Assembly (NCBI GenBank): GCA_963682135.1
Contig: OY821645.1
Coordinates: 2,979,342 to 3,043,341, forward strand
Length of the DNA stretch: 64,000 nt
From: Methanothrix sp.
Lineage (GTDB): Archaea; Halobacteriota; Methanosarcinia; Methanotrichales; Methanotrichaceae
Direction of reading: 5' to 3'
In this document: positions 22,815-37,534 of the stretch, piece by piece
Numbering within the stretch: the stretch's first letter is position 1
Layout: every line of letters starts with the position of its first letter
Notes under the pieces: generated by a model
Seen by the model: only the letters and a program-made list of their open reading frames with translations
Databases searched by the model: none
Told to the model about the DNA's origin: nothing
Made by a program: the position numbers and the translations under genes

Positions 22815-22828
22815 GATTGGGAACATAT

Positions 22829-24085
22829 ATGGGCAAACGAAAGAATAGAGTTTGCGGAGCCGATGTCCATAAAGATATCATAGTTGCCACGATCCAAGAC
22901 TCTGATGATACCGAATTCCAGGAAAAGTTTGGCACTATCTCGATAGAGCTAGGGAGATTCAGGGACTGGCTCATCGCCCACAATTGCGAGCAGGTAGCCT
23001 TCGAAGCTACTGGAGTTTACTGGTTTCCCGTCTACGATGCTCTAAGTCCTTCTATTGATACCATTGTAGCGAATCCCTGGATGATAAAAGGTATCCCTAG
23101 GAATAAATCAGATACTCTTGACTCCAAGTGGATTGCAGGTAACTGCTTAGATGGCAAAATTAAGAGGTCACGAGTTCTGCCCAAAAATGGTAGAGACCTG
23201 AGGACTTTGACCCGTGCCAGATCGGCATATACCAAGACTCGAACACAGCTAAGGAATAGAATTCACAAGTATCTGGCGCTTTGCGGGATTACGCTGAGTT
23301 CTTACATCTCAGATATCTTCGGGAAATCCGGCAGACATATCTTAGATGGCCTAATAGAATCTGAGGATATAGATACGATCATGGACGGCATACCTTCTGG
23401 AAAAGTCAAGAAAAAGCGAGAGCCTATCAAAGCATCTCTTGGAAATGGTCTTGATGACGTTTCAAGAATGCTTATCAAGGATACTCTCGAACTCCTGGAT
23501 CATCTGGATGAGAAGGTAAATGATACAAGCCTGGAAATACTTGGTAGACTTCAGGAAAGAGCCAGAGACCTGGCAATAGTCATGTCAGTTCCTGGAATTG
23601 GATTCGTATCTGCTTCGATTATTCTGGCAGAGATAGGAGACTATCATGATTTCCAAAAGTCTGAACAACTAGTAAAATGGTGTGGACTGGCTCCAGGACT
23701 AAACGAATCTGCGGGAAAGAAGAGCCCTTGCGGTATCACTAAACAGGGATCCAAGCATCTCAGAACTATACTTGTGGAGATTGCTCAAGTTGTGGCTAAA
23801 ATGAGCAAGAACAATCTTTCAAGTTTTTTCCATAGATTGAGGGCTAGAAAGAATTACAATGTAGCAATTACTGCTTTGGCCAGAAAATTAATCAGCATAA
23901 TTTTCCATCTGTTGATTAACCAAGAGCTATATCAAGAAGACAACTGCACTACGGTTAAAACAAAACCCATCAAGAAGGATCTCCTCCGCCTATCCAAAGA
24001 AGAGCAATTTAAGGATGGTGTAGCTGCAATCGTAGATGCCTTTTATTACTTCAAGAAAAAATCTTCGTTAGAAGGGGGTGGATAG
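22829..24085 (+). CDS. IS110 DEDD transposase/recombinase
   Basis: GADVHKD, FEATGVYW, KSDTLDS, SVPGIG, GLAPGLNESAGK. Confidence 0.95.
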   Translation: MGKRKNRVCGADVHKDIIVATIQDSDDTEFQEKFGTISIELGRFRDWLIAHNCEQVAFEATGVYWFPVYDALSPSIDTIVANPWMIKGIPRNKSDTLDSKWIAGNCLDGKIKRSRVLPKNGRDLRTLTRARSAYTKTRTQLRNRIHKYLALCGITLSSYISDIFGKSGRHILDGLIESEDIDTIMDGIPSGKVKKKREPIKASLGNGLDDVSRMLIKDTLELLDHLDEKVNDTSLEILGRLQERARDLAIVMSVPGIGFVSASIILAEIGDYHDFQKSEQLVKWCGLAPGLNESAGKKSPCGITKQGSKHLRTILVEIAQVVAKMSKNNLSSFFHRLRARKNYNVAITALARKLISIIFHLLINQELYQEDNCTTVKTKPIKKDLLRLSKEEQFKDGVAAIVDAFYYFKKKSSLEGGG

Positions 24086-32229: not shown

Positions 32230-33033
32230 TCAAAGCCCCCCGTACCTTCGCACGTGCTCCCAGGCTCGATGATCCTCCGGGAACCGCTCCTTTCGGGTGT
32301 AGATGGATGCATCCTCCCGCCCGAACAGCTTTCGGTCCTCGCCCACCGGGCAGACCTTGATGCATATCCCGCAGGGCGAGATGCCCCGGCTGTTCAGTTC
32401 AGCACTCCGGCCAGTGCAGCTCTTTTTATCAGTGAGCCCTTGCGGATAGTCCTTCTCATCCAGAGCCTTCACCGGGCACATCTTGACGCAGCGCATGCAG
32501 CGGGTGCATAGCTCTTCTTTCATGAGAGGATCAGAGGATAGCTCTGCCGCAGTGAAGACGCTGCCAAAGCGCACCCGAGGGCCAAATTGAGGGGTGAGCA
32601 GCATATTGTTCGTCCCGAAATTGCCCAGGCCTGCCAGGAGGGCAGCGTGTCTGTGAGAGAAGAAGGCCACCGGATTTTTGAGCAGGGCCTTGATGCCGAA
32701 GTATCCGTCACGAGGAACGAAGACAGATGGGTGGCCCTTTTCGCTCAGAAAATTGGCCAGTCGGTAGGTGTACTGATCGAGCAGGCTATTCACTGTGTTG
32801 TACAGCTCCCGGTAGTAAATGGATGGCGCGCTCTCCAGCACAGGCAGGCTGACTGGCAGGCCAATGACAATTACCGATTTTGCCTGGGAAAATATGGACT
32901 GAGGATAAAACTCCTCCGGCATCCAGGGCTGAAAGGGTGGGTCCTTCCAGCGCTCTACACTCGCTACTCCCAGCAAGGGTATCTCCATCTTCTTGCATCT
33001 CATCCGGATAGCTCTCAATAGATCTTCACTCAT
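32230..33033 (-). CDS. QueG/reductive-dehalogenase-like 4Fe-4S protein
   Basis: SHRHAALLAGLGNFG…GPRVRF, CTRCMRCVKMCP, CGICIKVCP. Confidence 0.85.
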   Translation of the reverse strand: MSEDLLRAIRMRCKKMEIPLLGVASVERWKDPPFQPWMPEEFYPQSIFSQAKSVIVIGLPVSLPVLESAPSIYYRELYNTVNSLLDQYTYRLANFLSEKGHPSVFVPRDGYFGIKALLKNPVAFFSHRHAALLAGLGNFGTNNMLLTPQFGPRVRFGSVFTAAELSSDPLMKEELCTRCMRCVKMCPVKALDEKDYPQGLTDKKSCTGRSAELNSRGISPCGICIKVCPVGEDRKLFGREDASIYTRKERFPEDHRAWEHVRRYGGL

Positions 33034-33215
33034 AGTAGTGACTCTATTCGCTATCAATGGATAAAAAGATCTGCACCAGATTTGCAATGGCCGTTATCAT
33101 TATTAACCTATAATCATTAAAGAATTAATTTAAAATCATTAATGGTTACCCAAGGCAAGCGTTATATAGTTTTTCATGCTTAATGCTGATATATATGTAA
33201 ATAACGGGGGCAAAT

Positions 33216-33692
33216 ATGATCGATGCCGAAAAGGAGAAGCTGGAGCGAATAATCAAAAAATATGAGGGAAAAGAAGGTTTTCTAATCCAATTGCTCTTAG
33301 ATTTGCAAAGCGAGCTGCATTGGATCTCCAAAGAAGCAATCAAGGAGCTTTCCCTGAGGCTTAAGATTCCAGTAAGCCGGATCTTCAGGGTGGCGAGCTT
33401 CTACAAAGCCATGAATCTCTCTCCTGTAGGCCGGCATAACGTATGCGTTTGTATGGGAACCGCCTGCCAGGTGCGGGGCGCTCAGAGACTGCTGGATGCA
33501 ACCGAATCCAAATTGGGCATAAAATCAGGCCAGACTACACCGGACCGTAGCTTCACATTAAATCGGGTCAATTGCCTGGGATGCTGCGCCATCGGTCCTG
33601 TAATGATAGTAGATGATGATTATCATGGTCGGGTGGACTCCAAGAAGGTAAAGTTGTTATTAGGTCAGCTTGCATCCGATAGTCAGAACTAG
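33216..33692 (+). CDS. NuoE/HydC-like 2Fe-2S subunit
   Basis: VASFY, CMGTACQVRG, CLGCCAIGP. Confidence 0.92.
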   Translation: MIDAEKEKLERIIKKYEGKEGFLIQLLLDLQSELHWISKEAIKELSLRLKIPVSRIFRVASFYKAMNLSPVGRHNVCVCMGTACQVRGAQRLLDATESKLGIKSGQTTPDRSFTLNRVNCLGCCAIGPVMIVDDDYHGRVDSKKVKLLLGQLASDSQN

Positions 33693-33710
33693 GAAAAAAA
33701 TGGGGTAGAG

Positions 33711-35678
33711 ATGGCAAGACTTACATCAATTCAGGATCTGGAGATCTTGAGAGATGAGATGCAGTGCAAGAGAGACCCTCGGAGAAAAGAAGTCGCAATC
33801 TGCACAGGTACCGGCTGTCTGGGTCTTGGTGCACGAGCGGTGGTCAGCGCCTTTGAAAAAGAGGTGGAATTAAGAGGGCTGCAAAAAGAGATCCGCATTA
33901 AGGAGACAGGATGTCCAGGCTTTTGCGAAAAGGGAACTCTGGTTGTTGTCTCTCCCCCAGGAATCTATTACATGGGAGTGCAGCCGGATGATGTGCTGGA
34001 GGTCGTGGAGGAGACGCTTTGCAAAGGCGAGCTGGTGGAGCGCCTGCTTTACACCGATCCTGCGACCGGCCAAAAGGCAGTACTGGAAGACGATATCCCA
34101 TTTTATAATCATCAGATGAGATTTCTAATTAAGAATAATATAAAAATAAATCCTAAGGATATATACGACTATATCGCCCTGGGCGGCTATGCCGCTTTGA
34201 GCCGCGCCTTATCACAAATGTCCTCCCGGGATGTGATCGAAGAAATAAAAAAGTCCGGTCTGCGCGGCAGGGGAGGTGGCGGATTTCCCACTGGAAAAAA
34301 ATGGGAATCGACGGCGAGTGCGCCCGGCCAGCCCAAATATGTGATCGTCAATTGCGATGAAGGAGATCCGGGTGCCTTCATGGACAGAGCTCTCATGGAG
34401 GGCAATGCGCACTGCGTTTTAGAGGGGCTGATTATCGGAGCCTATGCAGTGGGAGCGCATAGCGGCTACATCTATGTGCGCATGGAGTACCCCCTGGCCG
34501 TGGAGAATACCAAGTTCGCCTTGCATCAGGCCCGAGAGCTGGGCCTTCTCGGGAAGAATATTTTGGGTAGCGGATTTGATTTCGATGTATCCGTGCACAG
34601 GGGTGCGGGTGCTTTCGTATCCGGAGAGTCGACCGCTCTCATGAATGCCCTGGAGGGCAAGGTGGGCGAGCCCCGGCCCAAGTATGTCCATACCTCTGAG
34701 TGCGGCCTCTGGAATCGACCCAGCCTGCTCAACAATGTGGAGACCTGGGCCAACATTCCTCTCATAATCAACCGAGGAGCTGATTGGTTCTCCTCCATTG
34801 GAACGGAAAAAAGCAAGGGAACCAAGATATTCTCACTGGTTGGAAAGGTCAACAATACCGGTCTGGTGGAAGTCCCCATGGGCATGAGCCTGGCCGACAT
34901 AATTTACAAGATAGGAGGCGGAATTCCCAATGGAAAGATGCTAAAAGGAGTGCAGACCGGTGGGCCATCAGGCGGAATAATTCCTGCCCGGCATTTGCAG
35001 ACGCCTGTTGATTATGAAGAACTCACCAGGCTTGGCTCCATGATGGGCTCAGGCAGCATTATTGTCATCGACGAGGATACCTGCGCCGTCGATTTGGCCC
35101 GCTACTTCGTTGACTTTCTTTGCGATGAGTCCTGCGGCAAGTGTCTGCCCTGCCGGGAGGGCTTGCTCAGGATGCGAGAGACATTGGACGGCATAGTCTC
35201 GGGCATTGGCCGAGAAGAAGACCTGCAAAATCTCAAAGAGGTCGCCGAGCTGATGAGAAGGACGTCGCTGTGTGCCTTAGGCCGTACAGCCATAAATCCG
35301 GTCTTAAGTACATTATCTTACTATCCTGATGAATATGCGGCCCATATAATCGAGAAGAGGTGCCCCTCTCTGGCCTGCAAAGCTCTTGTTTCTTATTATG
35401 TCGAGCCGGAGGTTTGCATAGGCTGCGGCCTTTGCAGGAAGAACTGTCCCCAGGGAGCAATCGAGGGAGAGGAGGGAAGCATTAGCGTCATAGACCAATC
35501 CCGTTGCACTCGATGCGGCATTTGCTTCGATGTCTGTCCGCCAAAGGCGAGGGCCGTTGCGAAAGTCTCTCGCGGACTTTTCCGATCATCATCTTCCTCA
35601 TCATCGTTATCTCCATCGTTAATGCCATCATCATCTTTGACCGGTTTAGAGAAAGCAAACAGAGGTGAGAGGCCATGA
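33711..35678 (+). CDS. Long NuoF/HydB-like FMN/NAD(P)-binding subunit
   Basis: N-terminal CTGTGC…CPGFC, GLRGRGGGGFPTG, DEGDPGAFMDR, GGPSGG, CGKCLPCREG, C-terminal 2x[4Fe-4S] (CIGCGLCRKNCP; CTRCGICFDVCP). Confidence 0.93.
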   Translation: MARLTSIQDLEILRDEMQCKRDPRRKEVAICTGTGCLGLGARAVVSAFEKEVELRGLQKEIRIKETGCPGFCEKGTLVVVSPPGIYYMGVQPDDVLEVVEETLCKGELVERLLYTDPATGQKAVLEDDIPFYNHQMRFLIKNNIKINPKDIYDYIALGGYAALSRALSQMSSRDVIEEIKKSGLRGRGGGGFPTGKKWESTASAPGQPKYVIVNCDEGDPGAFMDRALMEGNAHCVLEGLIIGAYAVGAHSGYIYVRMEYPLAVENTKFALHQARELGLLGKNILGSGFDFDVSVHRGAGAFVSGESTALMNALEGKVGEPRPKYVHTSECGLWNRPSLLNNVETWANIPLIINRGADWFSSIGTEKSKGTKIFSLVGKVNNTGLVEVPMGMSLADIIYKIGGGIPNGKMLKGVQTGGPSGGIIPARHLQTPVDYEELTRLGSMMGSGSIIVIDEDTCAVDLARYFVDFLCDESCGKCLPCREGLLRMRETLDGIVSGIGREEDLQNLKEVAELMRRTSLCALGRTAINPVLSTLSYYPDEYAAHIIEKRCPSLACKALVSYYVEPEVCIGCGLCRKNCPQGAIEGEEGSISVIDQSRCTRCGICFDVCPPKARAVAKVSRGLFRSSSSSSSLSPSLMPSSSLTGLEKANRGERP

Positions 35679-37165
35679 CCAAATTGAAGATGACAATCGA
35701 CGGTCATGAGATAGAGACCTCTAGCGAGAGTGGCTCGACCACGATCCTGGAGGCGGCAAGGCTTGCCGGCATTCATATCCCGACGCTGTGCCATCATCCT
35801 TCTCTGGAAGCTTATGGATCCTGTCGTCTGTGTACTGTGCAAGTCGTTAAAAACGGCAGGAAAAAGTTTGTCACCGCCTGCAACTATCCAATAGAGGAAG
35901 GGCTTGTTGTAAATACCTGTACAGAGGAGATTGCAGGCATCCGAAAAATGATCCTGGAGCTTCTCCTGGCCCGCTGTCCCCAGGAGAAGAGATGGCAGGA
36001 GATGGCAGGAGAATATGGGATTATCAAGTCACGCTTCTCGCCGGAGGACAAGAATTGCATTCTTTGCGGACTATGCTACCGGGTCTGCGAGGAACTGGTG
36101 GGCGTGGCGGCCATCAATGCTCAGAACCGTGGCGTCTCCCGGGAGGTGGATACACCCTATGGCGAGCTATCGGAAGACTGCATCGCATGCGGTGCATGTG
36201 CTCTGGTCTGTCCTACAAATTCCATCATAGAACGAAAGAACATTTACCCGCTCACCTCAGTCGATATCAAAGAGATGGAAGAGGAATTCCTCAGTGGACA
36301 CATTGATGATGATCTGGGGATAAATAGAGAAATGCTGGCCGCAAAGAGCAGCATTGAAGGGCAGGATGGGGGTATGGTAACCTCAATACTCCAGCGTGGA
36401 ATTGAGACGGGACTGCTGGATGGAGCAGTAGTCGCCCCAAAAGATGAACGCGTGGGAGCGAAAGCCGCTCTTGTTGATGGAGTGGAATCGATTTTGCAGG
36501 CAAGAGGGACGAAATACGTTCGGGTGTCCGTCATCGCCCCGCTCCTGGAGGCCTTAGAGAGGGGCAAAAGGAGAATTGCCGTTGTCGGCACACCCTGTCA
36601 GATGCGAATGGTCAGAAAATTACAGAGGCAGGGCTATTTTAATGAAAAATTTCCAGATGCCAGGATATTTCTCATCGGCCTCTTCTGCTTTGAAAGCTTC
36701 GATTATGAATCCCTTAAAAGCCGCATGAAGGAGCATTTCGGCATAGATCTGGATAGGGCGGAAAAGATGCAGATCGCCAGAGGGAAATTCATAGTGGCAG
36801 CGGACGGCAAAGAGTACTCCTGCCGGGTGCGAGATCTTGGAGACTCTGTGAGAGAAGGCTGCGGATTTTGTGGTGATCTGGTAAGCCGGCTGGCAGATAT
36901 TTCTATAGGCTCGATTGGGAGCGAGGAAGGATATTCCACTGTGATAGTGAGATCCGAGTGGGGGGAGAAGCTGCTGGAAGCGGTGCAATTTGATCGAAAG
37001 GAGATCAATCGAGAGGAGATTGTCAAACTGGCTGCAATCAAGCGGAAGAATGCCGACAAAAATTTTGCGGGGATCGTGGCCGGGCTGCCGGAACGGCTGG
37101 AGGCGCAGAGGAATGAGTGCGCTTTGTCTCCTGCAAAGGTCTTTAATTCAGAGATCTTATCCTGA
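35675..37165 (+). CDS. Fusion of NuoG/HydA-type N-terminal Fe-S module to FrhB/FdhB-type F420-binding domain
   Basis: IPTLC…GSCRLC…TAC 2Fe-2S, CILCGLCYRVC, CIACGACALVCP; FrhB motifs QDGGMVTS, GTKY, VGTPCQ, IGLFCFESF, CGFC…ADISIGS. Confidence 0.9.
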   Translation: MTKLKMTIDGHEIETSSESGSTTILEAARLAGIHIPTLCHHPSLEAYGSCRLCTVQVVKNGRKKFVTACNYPIEEGLVVNTCTEEIAGIRKMILELLLARCPQEKRWQEMAGEYGIIKSRFSPEDKNCILCGLCYRVCEELVGVAAINAQNRGVSREVDTPYGELSEDCIACGACALVCPTNSIIERKNIYPLTSVDIKEMEEEFLSGHIDDDLGINREMLAAKSSIEGQDGGMVTSILQRGIETGLLDGAVVAPKDERVGAKAALVDGVESILQARGTKYVRVSVIAPLLEALERGKRRIAVVGTPCQMRMVRKLQRQGYFNEKFPDARIFLIGLFCFESFDYESLKSRMKEHFGIDLDRAEKMQIARGKFIVAADGKEYSCRVRDLGDSVREGCGFCGDLVSRLADISIGSIGSEEGYSTVIVRSEWGEKLLEAVQFDRKEINREEIVKLAAIKRKNADKNFAGIVAGLPERLEAQRNECALSPAKVFNSEILS

Positions 37166-37219: not shown

Positions 37220-37534
37220 ATGGACTACTCATTCAAGCGAGGCTTCAAGCCTGACTTAGAGCGAATATCAAAGGCACTGGAAGAGGAATTTCCCACCGAG
37301 ATCAAAGAGGAGAACGGCAAGCTTCTGCTCAGCTATGGAGCTCTTAAGAGCGTCTGTGTGTCAATCACCGGCAAGAAGCTCACTGTGACCACAGAGTCGC
37401 TAATAGGCGCCAGCGACGTCGTTGCCATGGATACCAACAAACGTTTTAGAAATTTCCTGGAAAAGGCCACAGGCTACACCGCCAAGCAGAGGCTGCAGAT
37501 GGCCAAAAAAGAGGCGACCAAAGGGGCTGATTGA
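37220..37534 (+). CDS. Conserved archaeal protein (DUF5611-like)
   Basis: YSFKRGF start, SYGAL, FLEKATGYTAKQR. Confidence 0.75.
   Translation: MDYSFKRGFKPDLERISKALEEEFPTEIKEENGKLLLSYGALKSVCVSITGKKLTVTTESLIGASDVVAMDTNKRFRNFLEKATGYTAKQRLQMAKKEATKGAD

Follow-up and report, generated by a model that had tools for sequence, protein, structure and literature searches.

Background

The HydABC/Bfu family of flavin and iron-sulfur (Fe-S) oxidoreductases was surveyed by Schut et al. (2022; Front Microbiol 13:946711, PMC9304861), and the available text of that paper already names the kind of enzyme considered here. Among BfuABC-like clusters it counts an "F420 dehydrogenase, 2 sequences": a Type 1 complex called "F420-Bfu", placed in BfuB clade 45 together with the tungsten enzyme type Wor-Bfu, in which BfuA carries an F420-reducing domain with flavin adenine dinucleotide (FAD). 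According to the same text, F420-Bfu is present in some acetoclastic Methanosaetaceae, which are without traditional F420 dehydrogenases, and is proposed to use reduced nicotinamide adenine dinucleotide (NADH) plus reduced ferredoxin to generate reduced coenzyme F420 (F420H2) for biosynthesis. It further predicts membrane-bound Nuo-Bfu complexes and describes non-bifurcating homologues that are without the clusters B2-B5. In addition, the available part of Chadwick et al. (2022; PLoS Biol 20:e3001508, PMC9012536) reports FrhB8 "NuoF-Trx" clusters, which are almost exclusive to anaerobic methanotrophic archaea (ANME) and for which no function is given. The present study concerns a three-gene operon, bfuC-bfuB-bfuA, located in 64,000 nucleotides (nt) of Methanothrix sp. 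DNA (assembly GCA_963682135.1, contig OY821645.1, positions 2,979,342 to 3,043,341). This whole stretch, called the window, forms the end of a single 3,043,341-bp contig, and the locus has its nearest named relatives in Methanothrix metagenome-assembled genomes (MAGs).

The operon is real, intact, conserved and ordinary for its lineage, and the enzyme type to which it is orthologous has already been predicted in print as F420-Bfu. By analogy with solved relatives, it would encode a soluble F420/NAD(H)/ferredoxin oxidoreductase of the HydABC/Bfu family, heterotrimeric or higher and probably bifurcating; this reading is given a probability of about 0.62. A sequence-only reading of the same DNA had proposed such a complex and had implied that it was new. 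The assignment to a HydABC/Bfu-type complex with an FrhB domain has stood, all sequence prerequisites of a BfuBC core being present; the novelty has not, since F420-Bfu was described in 2022 (PMC9304861), and the supply of F420H2 for anabolism was proposed there as well. Its further statement, that no enzyme with this architecture has been characterised, agrees with the literature search, which found none. What is added here is the patchiness of the operon in Methanotrichaceae, the lack of a canonical FpoF in all 105 genomes of that family, the presence of two deep clades, and the commonness of the operon in ANME-1.

The bfuCBA operon

The operon consists of three genes:

bfuC, 33216-33692, + strand: open reading frame (ORF) of 158 amino acids (aa), NuoE/HydC-type subunit; PF01257
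bfuB, 33711-35678, + strand: ORF of 655 aa, long NuoF/HydB-type protein with an NAD(H)/flavin mononucleotide (FMN) site and five predicted metal sites
bfuA, 35675-37165, + strand: ORF of 496 aa, electron-transfer module fused to an FrhB-type catalytic domain

The bfuC stop codon (TAG, 33690-33692) is followed by 18 nt and then by the bfuB ATG at 33711, and the junction of bfuB and bfuA is an ATGA overlap at 35675-35678. Coordinates and sequence thus bear out the tight linkage that had been reported for the three genes. Shine-Dalgarno-like, G-rich stretches lie upstream of all three starts. The synteny check that the sequence-only reading had suggested, for nuoE-nuoF-(2Fe2S+FrhB), was run: in 24 of 25 loci, drawn from four archaeal families, namely Methanotrichaceae, ANME-1 and two others, the genes follow one another as C-B-A on one strand. 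Such conservation is far beyond chance. The sole exception is an ANME-1 locus (L070; G190:C46:19000-24569), in which a full-length bfuA (52% identity) is accompanied by neither bfuB nor bfuC in the 5570 bases examined. Ligand conservation, as given below, refers to 24 BfuC and BfuB orthologues and 25 BfuA orthologues from the four families.

BfuC and BfuB

BfuC matches PF01257 at 2.4e-48, and the ligands of its predicted [2Fe-2S] cluster (C79, C84, C120 and C124) are present in 24/24 orthologues. Its score against the NCBIfam NuoE model NF005722 falls just under the cut-off (140.0 versus 141 bits). The longer BfuB contains the following parts:

33783..34013, + strand: N-terminal thioredoxin-like [2Fe-2S] domain, aa 25-101; C31, C36, C68, C72
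34245..34760, + strand: FMN/NADH-binding domain, aa 179-350; Complex1_51K; glycine-rich GLRGRGGGGFPTG
35091..35345, + strand: [4Fe-4S] domain, aa 461-545; C475, C478, C481, C521; NADH_4Fe-4S
35394..35549, + strand: C-terminal 2x[4Fe-4S] ferredoxin domain, aa 562-613; Fer4 families
35571..35675, + strand: Ser-rich tail, aa 621-655; low complexity, SSSSSSSLSPSLMPSSSL...

Pfam recognizes Complex1_51K (1.2e-43), SLBB (4.7e-8), NADH_4Fe-4S (5.4e-29) and C-terminal Fer4 pairs at residues 562-613. The match to the N-terminal 2Fe-2S domain is weak (21.8 bits against a cut-off of 24.8, residues 25-101); aligning BfuB in full with solved HydB chains confirms the domain. Among the orthologues, C31 is found in 23/24 and C36, C68 and C72 in 24/24; C475, C478, C481 and C521, which are kept in solved HydB chains as well, are likewise present in 24/24, as are all eight C-terminal ligands (C569, C572, C575, C579 and C599, C602, C605, C609). 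The C-terminal domain is inferred, by analogy, to be a ferredoxin-interacting arm. The sequence-only reading had also marked a C...H...C...C site; it corresponds to C458/H545/C551/C556, a Cys3His set that is present in 24/24 orthologues and in four solved bifurcating homologues. The equivalent site of the solved homologues has presumably been modelled either as the [2Fe-2S] cluster "B2" or as Zn, and sequence does not decide between 2Fe-2S and Zn at this position in BfuB. Taken together, Pfam and the alignments to solved chains uphold the earlier description of a NuoE/HydC 2Fe-2S subunit and a 655-aa NuoF/HydB with its clusters.

Whether BfuB belongs with bifurcating or non-bifurcating proteins was assessed by coverage and by comparison of ligands with solved chains. 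Searched against all PDB chains, BfuB aligns over its full length with 7t2r_B (NiFe-HydABCSL; 746 bits, query 25-612), 8a6t_B (T. kivui HydB; 722 bits, query 1-612) and 9mqx_B (706 bits), and also with 7q4v_B (A. woodii HydB), 9n5u_B (NfnB) and 7p5h_B (T. maritima HydB), six entries in total. Entry 9mqx is an electron-bifurcating tungstopterin aldehyde oxidoreductase, and the titles of 7t2r, 8a6t and 7q4w, as returned by Foldseek, likewise name electron-bifurcating enzymes. In the same PDB search, complex-I NuoF and FdsB chains align to BfuB only over about residues 150-550. Every ligand set of BfuB is kept in the alignments with 7t2r_B, 8a6t_B, 9mqx_B and 7q4v_B. The glycine-rich motif GLRGRGGGGFPTG is aligned in 4/4 of the solved homologues compared; the FVCGE motif of 3/4 of them is FVSGE in BfuB. 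The NuoF equivalog TIGR01959 gives 452.5 bits, which does not reach its cut-off of 558.65. BfuB is thus predicted to have the NAD(H)/FMN site together with every extra metal site that separates the long bifurcating HydB from the NuoF of complex I. Because the B2-B5 ligands are present, and because the non-bifurcating homologues in the available text of Schut et al. (2022) are without them, BfuB has the sequence features of a bifurcating core.

These ligands bear directly on a different explanation, namely that the complex is a non-bifurcating NAD(P)H:F420 oxidoreductase, in which a NuoEF-type diaphorase passes electrons to or from the FrhB flavin and ferredoxin is not obligatory, as in Hox or FdsABG. 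The module is made of the same parts as the non-bifurcating NuoEFG and FdsABG. Furthermore, with the potentials given in the text of PMC9304861 (-360 mV for F420, about -280 mV for NADH and about -500 mV for ferredoxin), the midpoints of NAD(P)H and F420 are close, so coupling is thermodynamically unneeded. However, the very clusters that are lacking in the non-bifurcating homologues of that survey are present and conserved here (C31 in 23/24, the rest invariant). In addition, Fno is already encoded in the genome for F420/NADP exchange, and a 1300-residue machine of about ten clusters would be an unlikely device for the same job. A purely diaphorase-like enzyme is judged unlikely.

In an alignment of the tails, the Ser-rich tail of BfuB exceeds that of its closest relatives, whose BfuB has 626-634 aa, by about 20-28 residues. 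Its length and sequence differ in every lineage, the ANME-1 copies having a common PVPPPxPExER motif, and tblastn matches of BfuB end at residues 619-625.

BfuA

Two parts can be recognized in BfuA:

35681..36229, + strand: N-terminal module; [2Fe-2S] C39, C50, C53, C69; 2x[4Fe-4S] C128-C138, C169-C179; Fer2_4, Fer4_7
36338..36988, + strand: FrhB/FdhB/FpoF-type domain, aa 222-438; PF04422 and PF04432; predicted FAD and F420 site

The Pfam matches of BfuA (Fer2_4, 1.9e-13; a 4Fe-4S dicluster, residues 125-185; FrhB_FdhB_N, PF04422, 1e-12; FrhB_FdhB_C, PF04432, 8.1e-39) predict a wire of one [2Fe-2S] and two [4Fe-4S] clusters that ends, instead of in an H-cluster, in a complete FrhB domain with FAD and a further [4Fe-4S] cluster. 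The two FrhB halves are well over their Pfam cut-offs (48.5 bits versus 22 and 133.3 bits versus 23.3). Neither an H-cluster nor a molybdopterin domain was found in BfuA with Pfam, and there is no match to the Fe-hydrogenase large subunit, so that the fusion of a HydA/NuoG-type Fe-S module to a full FrhB domain, as first described from the letters, is confirmed. The ligands of the dicluster are C128, C131, C134, C138 and C169, C172, C175, C179; those of the FrhB-domain [4Fe-4S] site are C308, C338, C396 and C399, which are invariant. All 16 Cys of the four predicted clusters are present in 25/25 orthologues (alignments down to 41% identity), and the motifs GQDGG, GTKY and ADISIGSxGS are invariant in the orthologue alignments. 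BfuA is without the His-ligated cluster of the NuoG type: PF10588 is unmatched, though it is matched in two FdhA-like proteins of the same genome. Among solved chains, the closest to the first 185 residues is the A subunit of the bifurcating tungsten aldehyde oxidoreductase (9mqx_A, 9.6e-44), an enzyme of the Wor-Bfu type, which Schut et al. (2022) put in the same BfuB clade 45 as F420-Bfu. The [FeFe]-hydrogenase model NF040763 covers residues 5-193 only, which is the N-terminal Fe-S module (127.5 bits versus 765), and NuoG TIGR01973 gives 72.3 bits against a cut-off of 470, the large C-terminal NuoG domain being absent.

Several results point to F420 as the substrate of the FrhB domain. Residues 228-445 match the solved FrhB 9r51_B at 1.7e-41, the sulfite reductase Fsr 7np8_A at 5.3e-40, and other F420-reactive modules (1e-31 to 1e-41). 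An AlphaFold model built from an alignment of 21 sequences has a mean predicted local distance difference test (pLDDT) score of 67.4, with most of the FrhB domain confident and residues 123-192, the 2x[4Fe-4S] module, below 50. When this model was searched with Foldseek, the best match was 8riu_B (8.3e-24), an F420-reducing component of a carbon monoxide dehydrogenase (CODH) from Ca. Ethanoperedens; Fsr, Frh and an F420-reducing Fwd component were also found, and the eleven top matches are all chains of F420-reactive enzymes.

The FrhB family also includes enzymes that do not use F420, such as HCAR, and the F420-independent HCAR chain 5dqr_E matches the BfuA model at Foldseek rank 13 (5.5e-15). 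Moreover, BfuA is under every relevant NCBIfam equivalog cut-off: 165.6 bits versus 331.5 for FrhB TIGR03289, 163.3 versus 475 for FpoF NF040616, and 196 versus 269 for PRK09325. The FrhB and FpoF scores imply that the FrhB domain of BfuA is a subfamily of its own. In fact, with every equivalog cut-off missed, BfuC, BfuB and BfuA are all relatives of named NCBIfam families and members of none. These facts favor the idea that the FrhB-type domain does not use F420 and serves instead as a flavin/Fe-S entry for another acceptor or partner, the third substrate being a different one. Against this idea stand the structure and sequence matches to F420-reactive enzymes given above, and the invariance of the FrhB motifs and of the four cluster Cys. 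On present evidence, a third substrate other than F420 is quite improbable.

Distribution

In the host family, 105 Methanotrichaceae species genomes were surveyed, with a BfuA match counted at E <= 1e-60. A match is present in 49 of them, including 29/64 of high quality, and in 5/16 genera (genus g1, 37/58; g21, 8/16; g22, 0/7). Some of the 49 matches are split or cut (G012, G019, G078 and G081). One of these MAGs carries a broken operon (L045; G012:C1:430637-432069), with bfuA matched by two pieces that overlap and bfuB matched from residue 298 onward only, which could be a pseudogene or the result of assembly frameshifts. Canonical FpoF was found in 0/105 of these genomes (E <= 1e-70). A figure legend of 2011, the part of that source that is available, lists Methanosaeta thermophila with FpoF; this is contradicted both by later work and by the present search.

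Within the phylum, an even sample of 401 genomes was searched at E <= 1e-55, and 56 gave a match. By family, these include f14 (48/54), which is ANME-1/Methanophagales; f11 (2/5), which is Ca. Methanolliviera; f31 (2/3); and f9 (1/24). The Methanosarcinaceae-like f3 has 0/52. The names of f14 and f11 come from the source names on exact protein copies. In ANME-1, the match starts in the N-terminal 2Fe-2S module in 36 of the 54 sampled genomes: full-length matches at 52-60% identity account for 23 of them, partial ones of that type for 4 (at least two lying against a contig end), and matches at 41-45% for 9. The 12 other matching genomes of this family have only a shorter ferredoxin-FrhB paralogue. 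In a library of representatives at 50% identity, 355 proteins match at 1e-30, and the whole fusion is covered by 2 of the best 150 (P0194 at 51% and P0195 at 42% identity). Among the matches listed, more than 120 clusters at 90% identity reach E <= 1e-180. Thus, the BfuA architecture is narrow in sequence space and abundant nonetheless.

A tree of the 25 BfuA proteins has two deep clades with 100/100 support each, the midpoint root being for drawing only. In clade I, a branch (80/84) has the 12 Methanotrichaceae rows to one side; the clade also includes 7 ANME-1 rows. Clade II contains the ANME-1 genus g37, f31 and f11 (loci L053, L055 and L072-L075, from G176, G146, G183, G218, G425 and G371), and one genome, G146, carries operons of both clades. 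The identity of BfuB to that of the window is 60-67% in both clades, whereas that of BfuA is 51-60% in clade I and 38-41% in clade II. From these sequences, the third substrate or the kinetics of clade II may differ. The drift of the catalytic subunit is a further point in favor of a substrate other than F420. However, in the genomes searched here the cluster was found only in Methanothrix/Methanotrichaceae, ANME-1, Methanolliviera and f31, which argues for F420. Methanothrix and the other Methanotrichaceae, ANME-1 and Methanolliviera are F420 users.

Redox background of the host genome

BfuB is the sole NuoF homologue in the host genome. Canonical FpoF was not found there (best score 189.5 bits against a cut-off of 475), and the search for a NiFe-hydrogenase large subunit gave nothing more than a 31.9-bit match, confined to the first 68 positions of the model. 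The genome does encode Fno/NpdG (225 bits) and Mer (474 bits), both over their cut-offs. The host cell therefore uses F420 and yet is without the usual F420-reducing enzymes, in keeping with the hydrogenase-poor acetoclastic methanogen that the sequence-only reading had supposed.

The genome also holds two stand-alone FrhB paralogues, both with uninformative neighbours. One, of 365 aa, is at G000:C1:613994-614992 (L077 3968-5065, - strand), and the other, of 349 aa, is at G000:C1:669834-670790 (L078 3766-4815, + strand). In 19/24 other genomes of the same genus there is a match of this 365-aa type, at about 35-38% identity and over query positions of about 166-437.

Outside the window, a locus designated L076 (G000:C1:979000-990000) has tandem genes for FdhA-like proteins of 916 and 917 aa, each with 2Fe-2S, His-cluster, 4Fe-4S and molybdopterin parts. 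Next come genes for a 310-aa Fe-S protein like NfnA/PyrK and for a formate/nitrite transporter, and a 507-aa NfnB/GltD-like gene is divergent. To judge from its genes, the cluster could give this acetoclastic methanogen a formate dehydrogenase linked to NAD(P). The N-termini of the FdhA-like proteins are 49-51% identical to BfuA, and it was considered whether these proteins share the single BfuBC core. This was rejected, as they have NfnA- and NfnB-like partners of their own and a formate transporter.

Proposed reaction and role

A mechanism for the predicted F420-Bfu enzyme can be proposed from its likeness to the solved HydABC, NiFe-HydABCSL and tungsten aldehyde oxidoreductase. Hydride would be exchanged with F420/F420H2 at the FAD of the FrhB domain of BfuA, and single electrons would then pass from the FrhB 4Fe-4S cluster through the other BfuA clusters to the BfuBC core. 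There, FMN and the clusters near it would couple the electrons to NAD+/NADH and, via the C-terminal arm of BfuB, to ferredoxin (Fd). The likely reaction would be

2 F420 + NADH + 2 Fd(red) + 3 H+ <-> 2 F420H2 + NAD+ + 2 Fd(ox)

With the potentials in the available text of Schut et al. (2022), this reaction is near equilibrium, mildly exergonic toward F420H2, and reversible. Since the host is without hydrogenase and FpoF and has the F420-dependent Mer and Fno, a plausible role is the balancing of the F420, NAD and ferredoxin pools. In particular, F420H2, and NADPH via Fno, could be supplied from the reduced ferredoxin of acetyl-CoA cleavage. The link to direct interspecies electron transfer (DIET) that was raised earlier is pure speculation.

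Several points weigh against a bifurcating F420-Bfu. The presence of the clusters is necessary for bifurcation and is not proof of it, and it is, by our own reasoning, not obvious where an acetoclastic methanogen would obtain NADH. A full-text literature search, with subscription journals and supplements outside its coverage, found no biochemical characterisation of any member. The operon is lacking in 56/105 Methanotrichaceae genomes, including 35/64 of high quality and all 7 of genus g22. Absence in more than half of the family means that the operon cannot be the family's general route of F420 reduction, and that its role is accessory rather than essential. The 365-aa FrhB paralogue, judged by its sequence, is a candidate for a simpler ferredoxin:F420 oxidoreductase and could make F420-Bfu dispensable. 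The low pLDDT of the 2x[4Fe-4S] module, the F420-independent members of the FrhB family with the HCAR match, and the NCBIfam scores of BfuA, all given above, count on the same side.

A broader idea is that F420-Bfu serves as the soluble "hub" so far missing for archaea without hydrogenases and without Rnf/Ech, keeping their ferredoxin, NAD and F420 pools in equilibrium. In ANME-1, reduced ferredoxin (and NADH) would be used to make F420H2, which would then be oxidised by the membrane Fqo complex. In those Methanothrix species that have the operon, the enzyme might run in either direction, providing F420H2 for Mtd and Mer, or low-potential ferredoxin from F420H2, during CO2 reduction with extracellular electrons. 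The clade split, with its conserved BfuB and divergent BfuA, could then reflect two different third substrates. With these extensions to ANME-1, Methanothrix and two substrates included, the idea is tentative and rather doubtful.

If the F420-Bfu reading is true, the operon would encode the first HydABC-type flavin/Fe-S bifurcating enzyme using coenzyme F420, and the only NAD(H)-linked redox enzyme of the HydABC kind in Methanothrix, a main biological source of methane. It bears on how F420 is reduced in Methanothrix without hydrogenase and FpoF, and also on how ferredoxin is re-oxidised in ANME-1, a question that the hub idea, if true, would answer. Since the enzyme type is not a new idea, the remaining value of the locus is as an intact, well-defined target for expression and for a first assay of an F420-dependent Bfu enzyme.

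Promoter region and neighbouring genes

The operon is preceded by an AT-rich spacer of 128 nt, which contains one further feature:

33161..33197, + strand: candidate archaeal promoter; AT-rich, with TATA-like ttatata at about -50 and tatatat at about -25 from the bfuC ATG

From its composition and position, this stretch is a possible promoter of the operon. On the other side of the spacer is a divergent gene (32230-33087, - strand) for a 285-aa protein with a 4Fe-4S dicluster at its C-terminus and without an assignment for its N-terminal two-thirds; it is kept at that position in 13/31 loci, close relatives only. Downstream, 55 nt after bfuA, starts a DUF5611 ORF of 104 aa (37220-37534, + strand; 2.4e-27). 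It adjoins the operon in 16/31 loci, all of close Methanothrix relatives, and in 0 ANME-1 or genus g21 loci, and it is probably a mere neighbour. Other flanking genes encode a glycogen-phosphorylase-like protein, a PurP-like protein, a SIS protein, a 252-aa unknown protein, AdoMet synthetase, a PAN-like AAA ATPase and MscS. As a whole, the neighbours are common only to close Methanothrix relatives (13-16/31 loci) and not to ANME-1 or genus g21 loci, and they give no functional hint. Elsewhere in the window, a 422-aa ORF (22817-24085, + strand) lies in a stretch of low GC content (0.43 versus about 0.52); its translation presumably resembles an IS110-type transposase.

The neighbourhood bears on another explanation, in which BfuABC is a detachable input module of membrane Fpo', that is, Fpo without FpoF, takes the place of the absent FpoF/NuoEFG head, and delivers electrons from NADH or F420H2 to the methanophenazine pool. 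Methanotrichaceae do have Fpo without FpoF, and the membrane-bound Nuo-Bfu complexes predicted by Schut et al. (PMC9304861) also count in its favor. However, inspection of gene context in the window found no nuo or fpo genes near the operon, its housekeeping neighbours being conserved only among close relatives. BfuA is without the large C-terminal domain of NuoG, published work, as far as its available text goes, gives Fpo' a direct ferredoxin-oxidising role, and about half of Methanotrichaceae are without the operon. A role as a head module of Fpo' is thus highly improbable. In its available part, a preprint of 2025 on energy metabolism in Methanothrix treats Fpo' and leaves the operon unmentioned.

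Comparison with known systems

The predicted F420-Bfu enzyme can be compared with solved bifurcating enzymes subunit by subunit. In HydABC, NiFe-HydABCSL and Wor-Bfu (7p5h, 8a6t, 7q4v, 7t2r and 9mqx), the likeness extends over the whole length of BfuB, with all ligands, and includes BfuC and the N-terminal module of BfuA. However, the catalytic unit of those enzymes is an H-cluster or lies in separate subunits of the NiFe or tungstopterin type, whereas here an FrhB flavin domain is fused to BfuA. A nearer parallel in design is the Nfn-Bfu/StnABC transhydrogenase (9n5u; BfuB, 634 bits), which is also Type 1 and whose BfuA has, in place of the H-cluster, a flavin domain for a two-electron hydride carrier; PDB entry 8oh5 is presumably the same transhydrogenase. 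The flavin domain of this transhydrogenase resembles NfnB/GltD and has NADP(H) as its substrate, while that of the present BfuA is of the FrhB type and is predicted to react with F420.

On the side of the F420 enzymes, BfuA shares with FrhB, FpoF, FdhB and the N-terminal half of Fsr the two Pfam domains, the Cys of the cluster and the conserved motifs. Unlike these proteins, BfuA carries a NuoG-type Fe-S wire in the same chain and has NuoEF-type partners, and it is without a hydrogenase, Fpo, FdhA or sulfite reductase partner. The FrhB8 "NuoF-Trx" clusters of ANME (PMC9012536) are similar in that, in the available description, an FrhB paralogue shares a cluster with genes for a divergent NuoF and a "thioredoxin", and the three-gene cluster was indeed found here in ANME-1. 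The "thioredoxin" is most likely the thioredoxin-like 2Fe-2S NuoE protein of PF01257. Matched by description, FrhB8 "NuoF-Trx" is probably the ANME counterpart of the operon.

The closest system remains F420-Bfu itself. In the available text of Schut et al. (2022, PMC9304861), it has the same three subunits, the same domain order, the same family of organisms and the same proposed reaction, and its BfuA has only a 2Fe-2S and two 4Fe-4S clusters before the F420-dehydrogenase domain, as does the BfuA described here. There is no difference in kind. The distribution is wider than the original paper stated: in place of its 2 sequences, the operon is now known, in two clades, from 49/105 genomes of the family and from ANME-1, Methanolliviera and f31.

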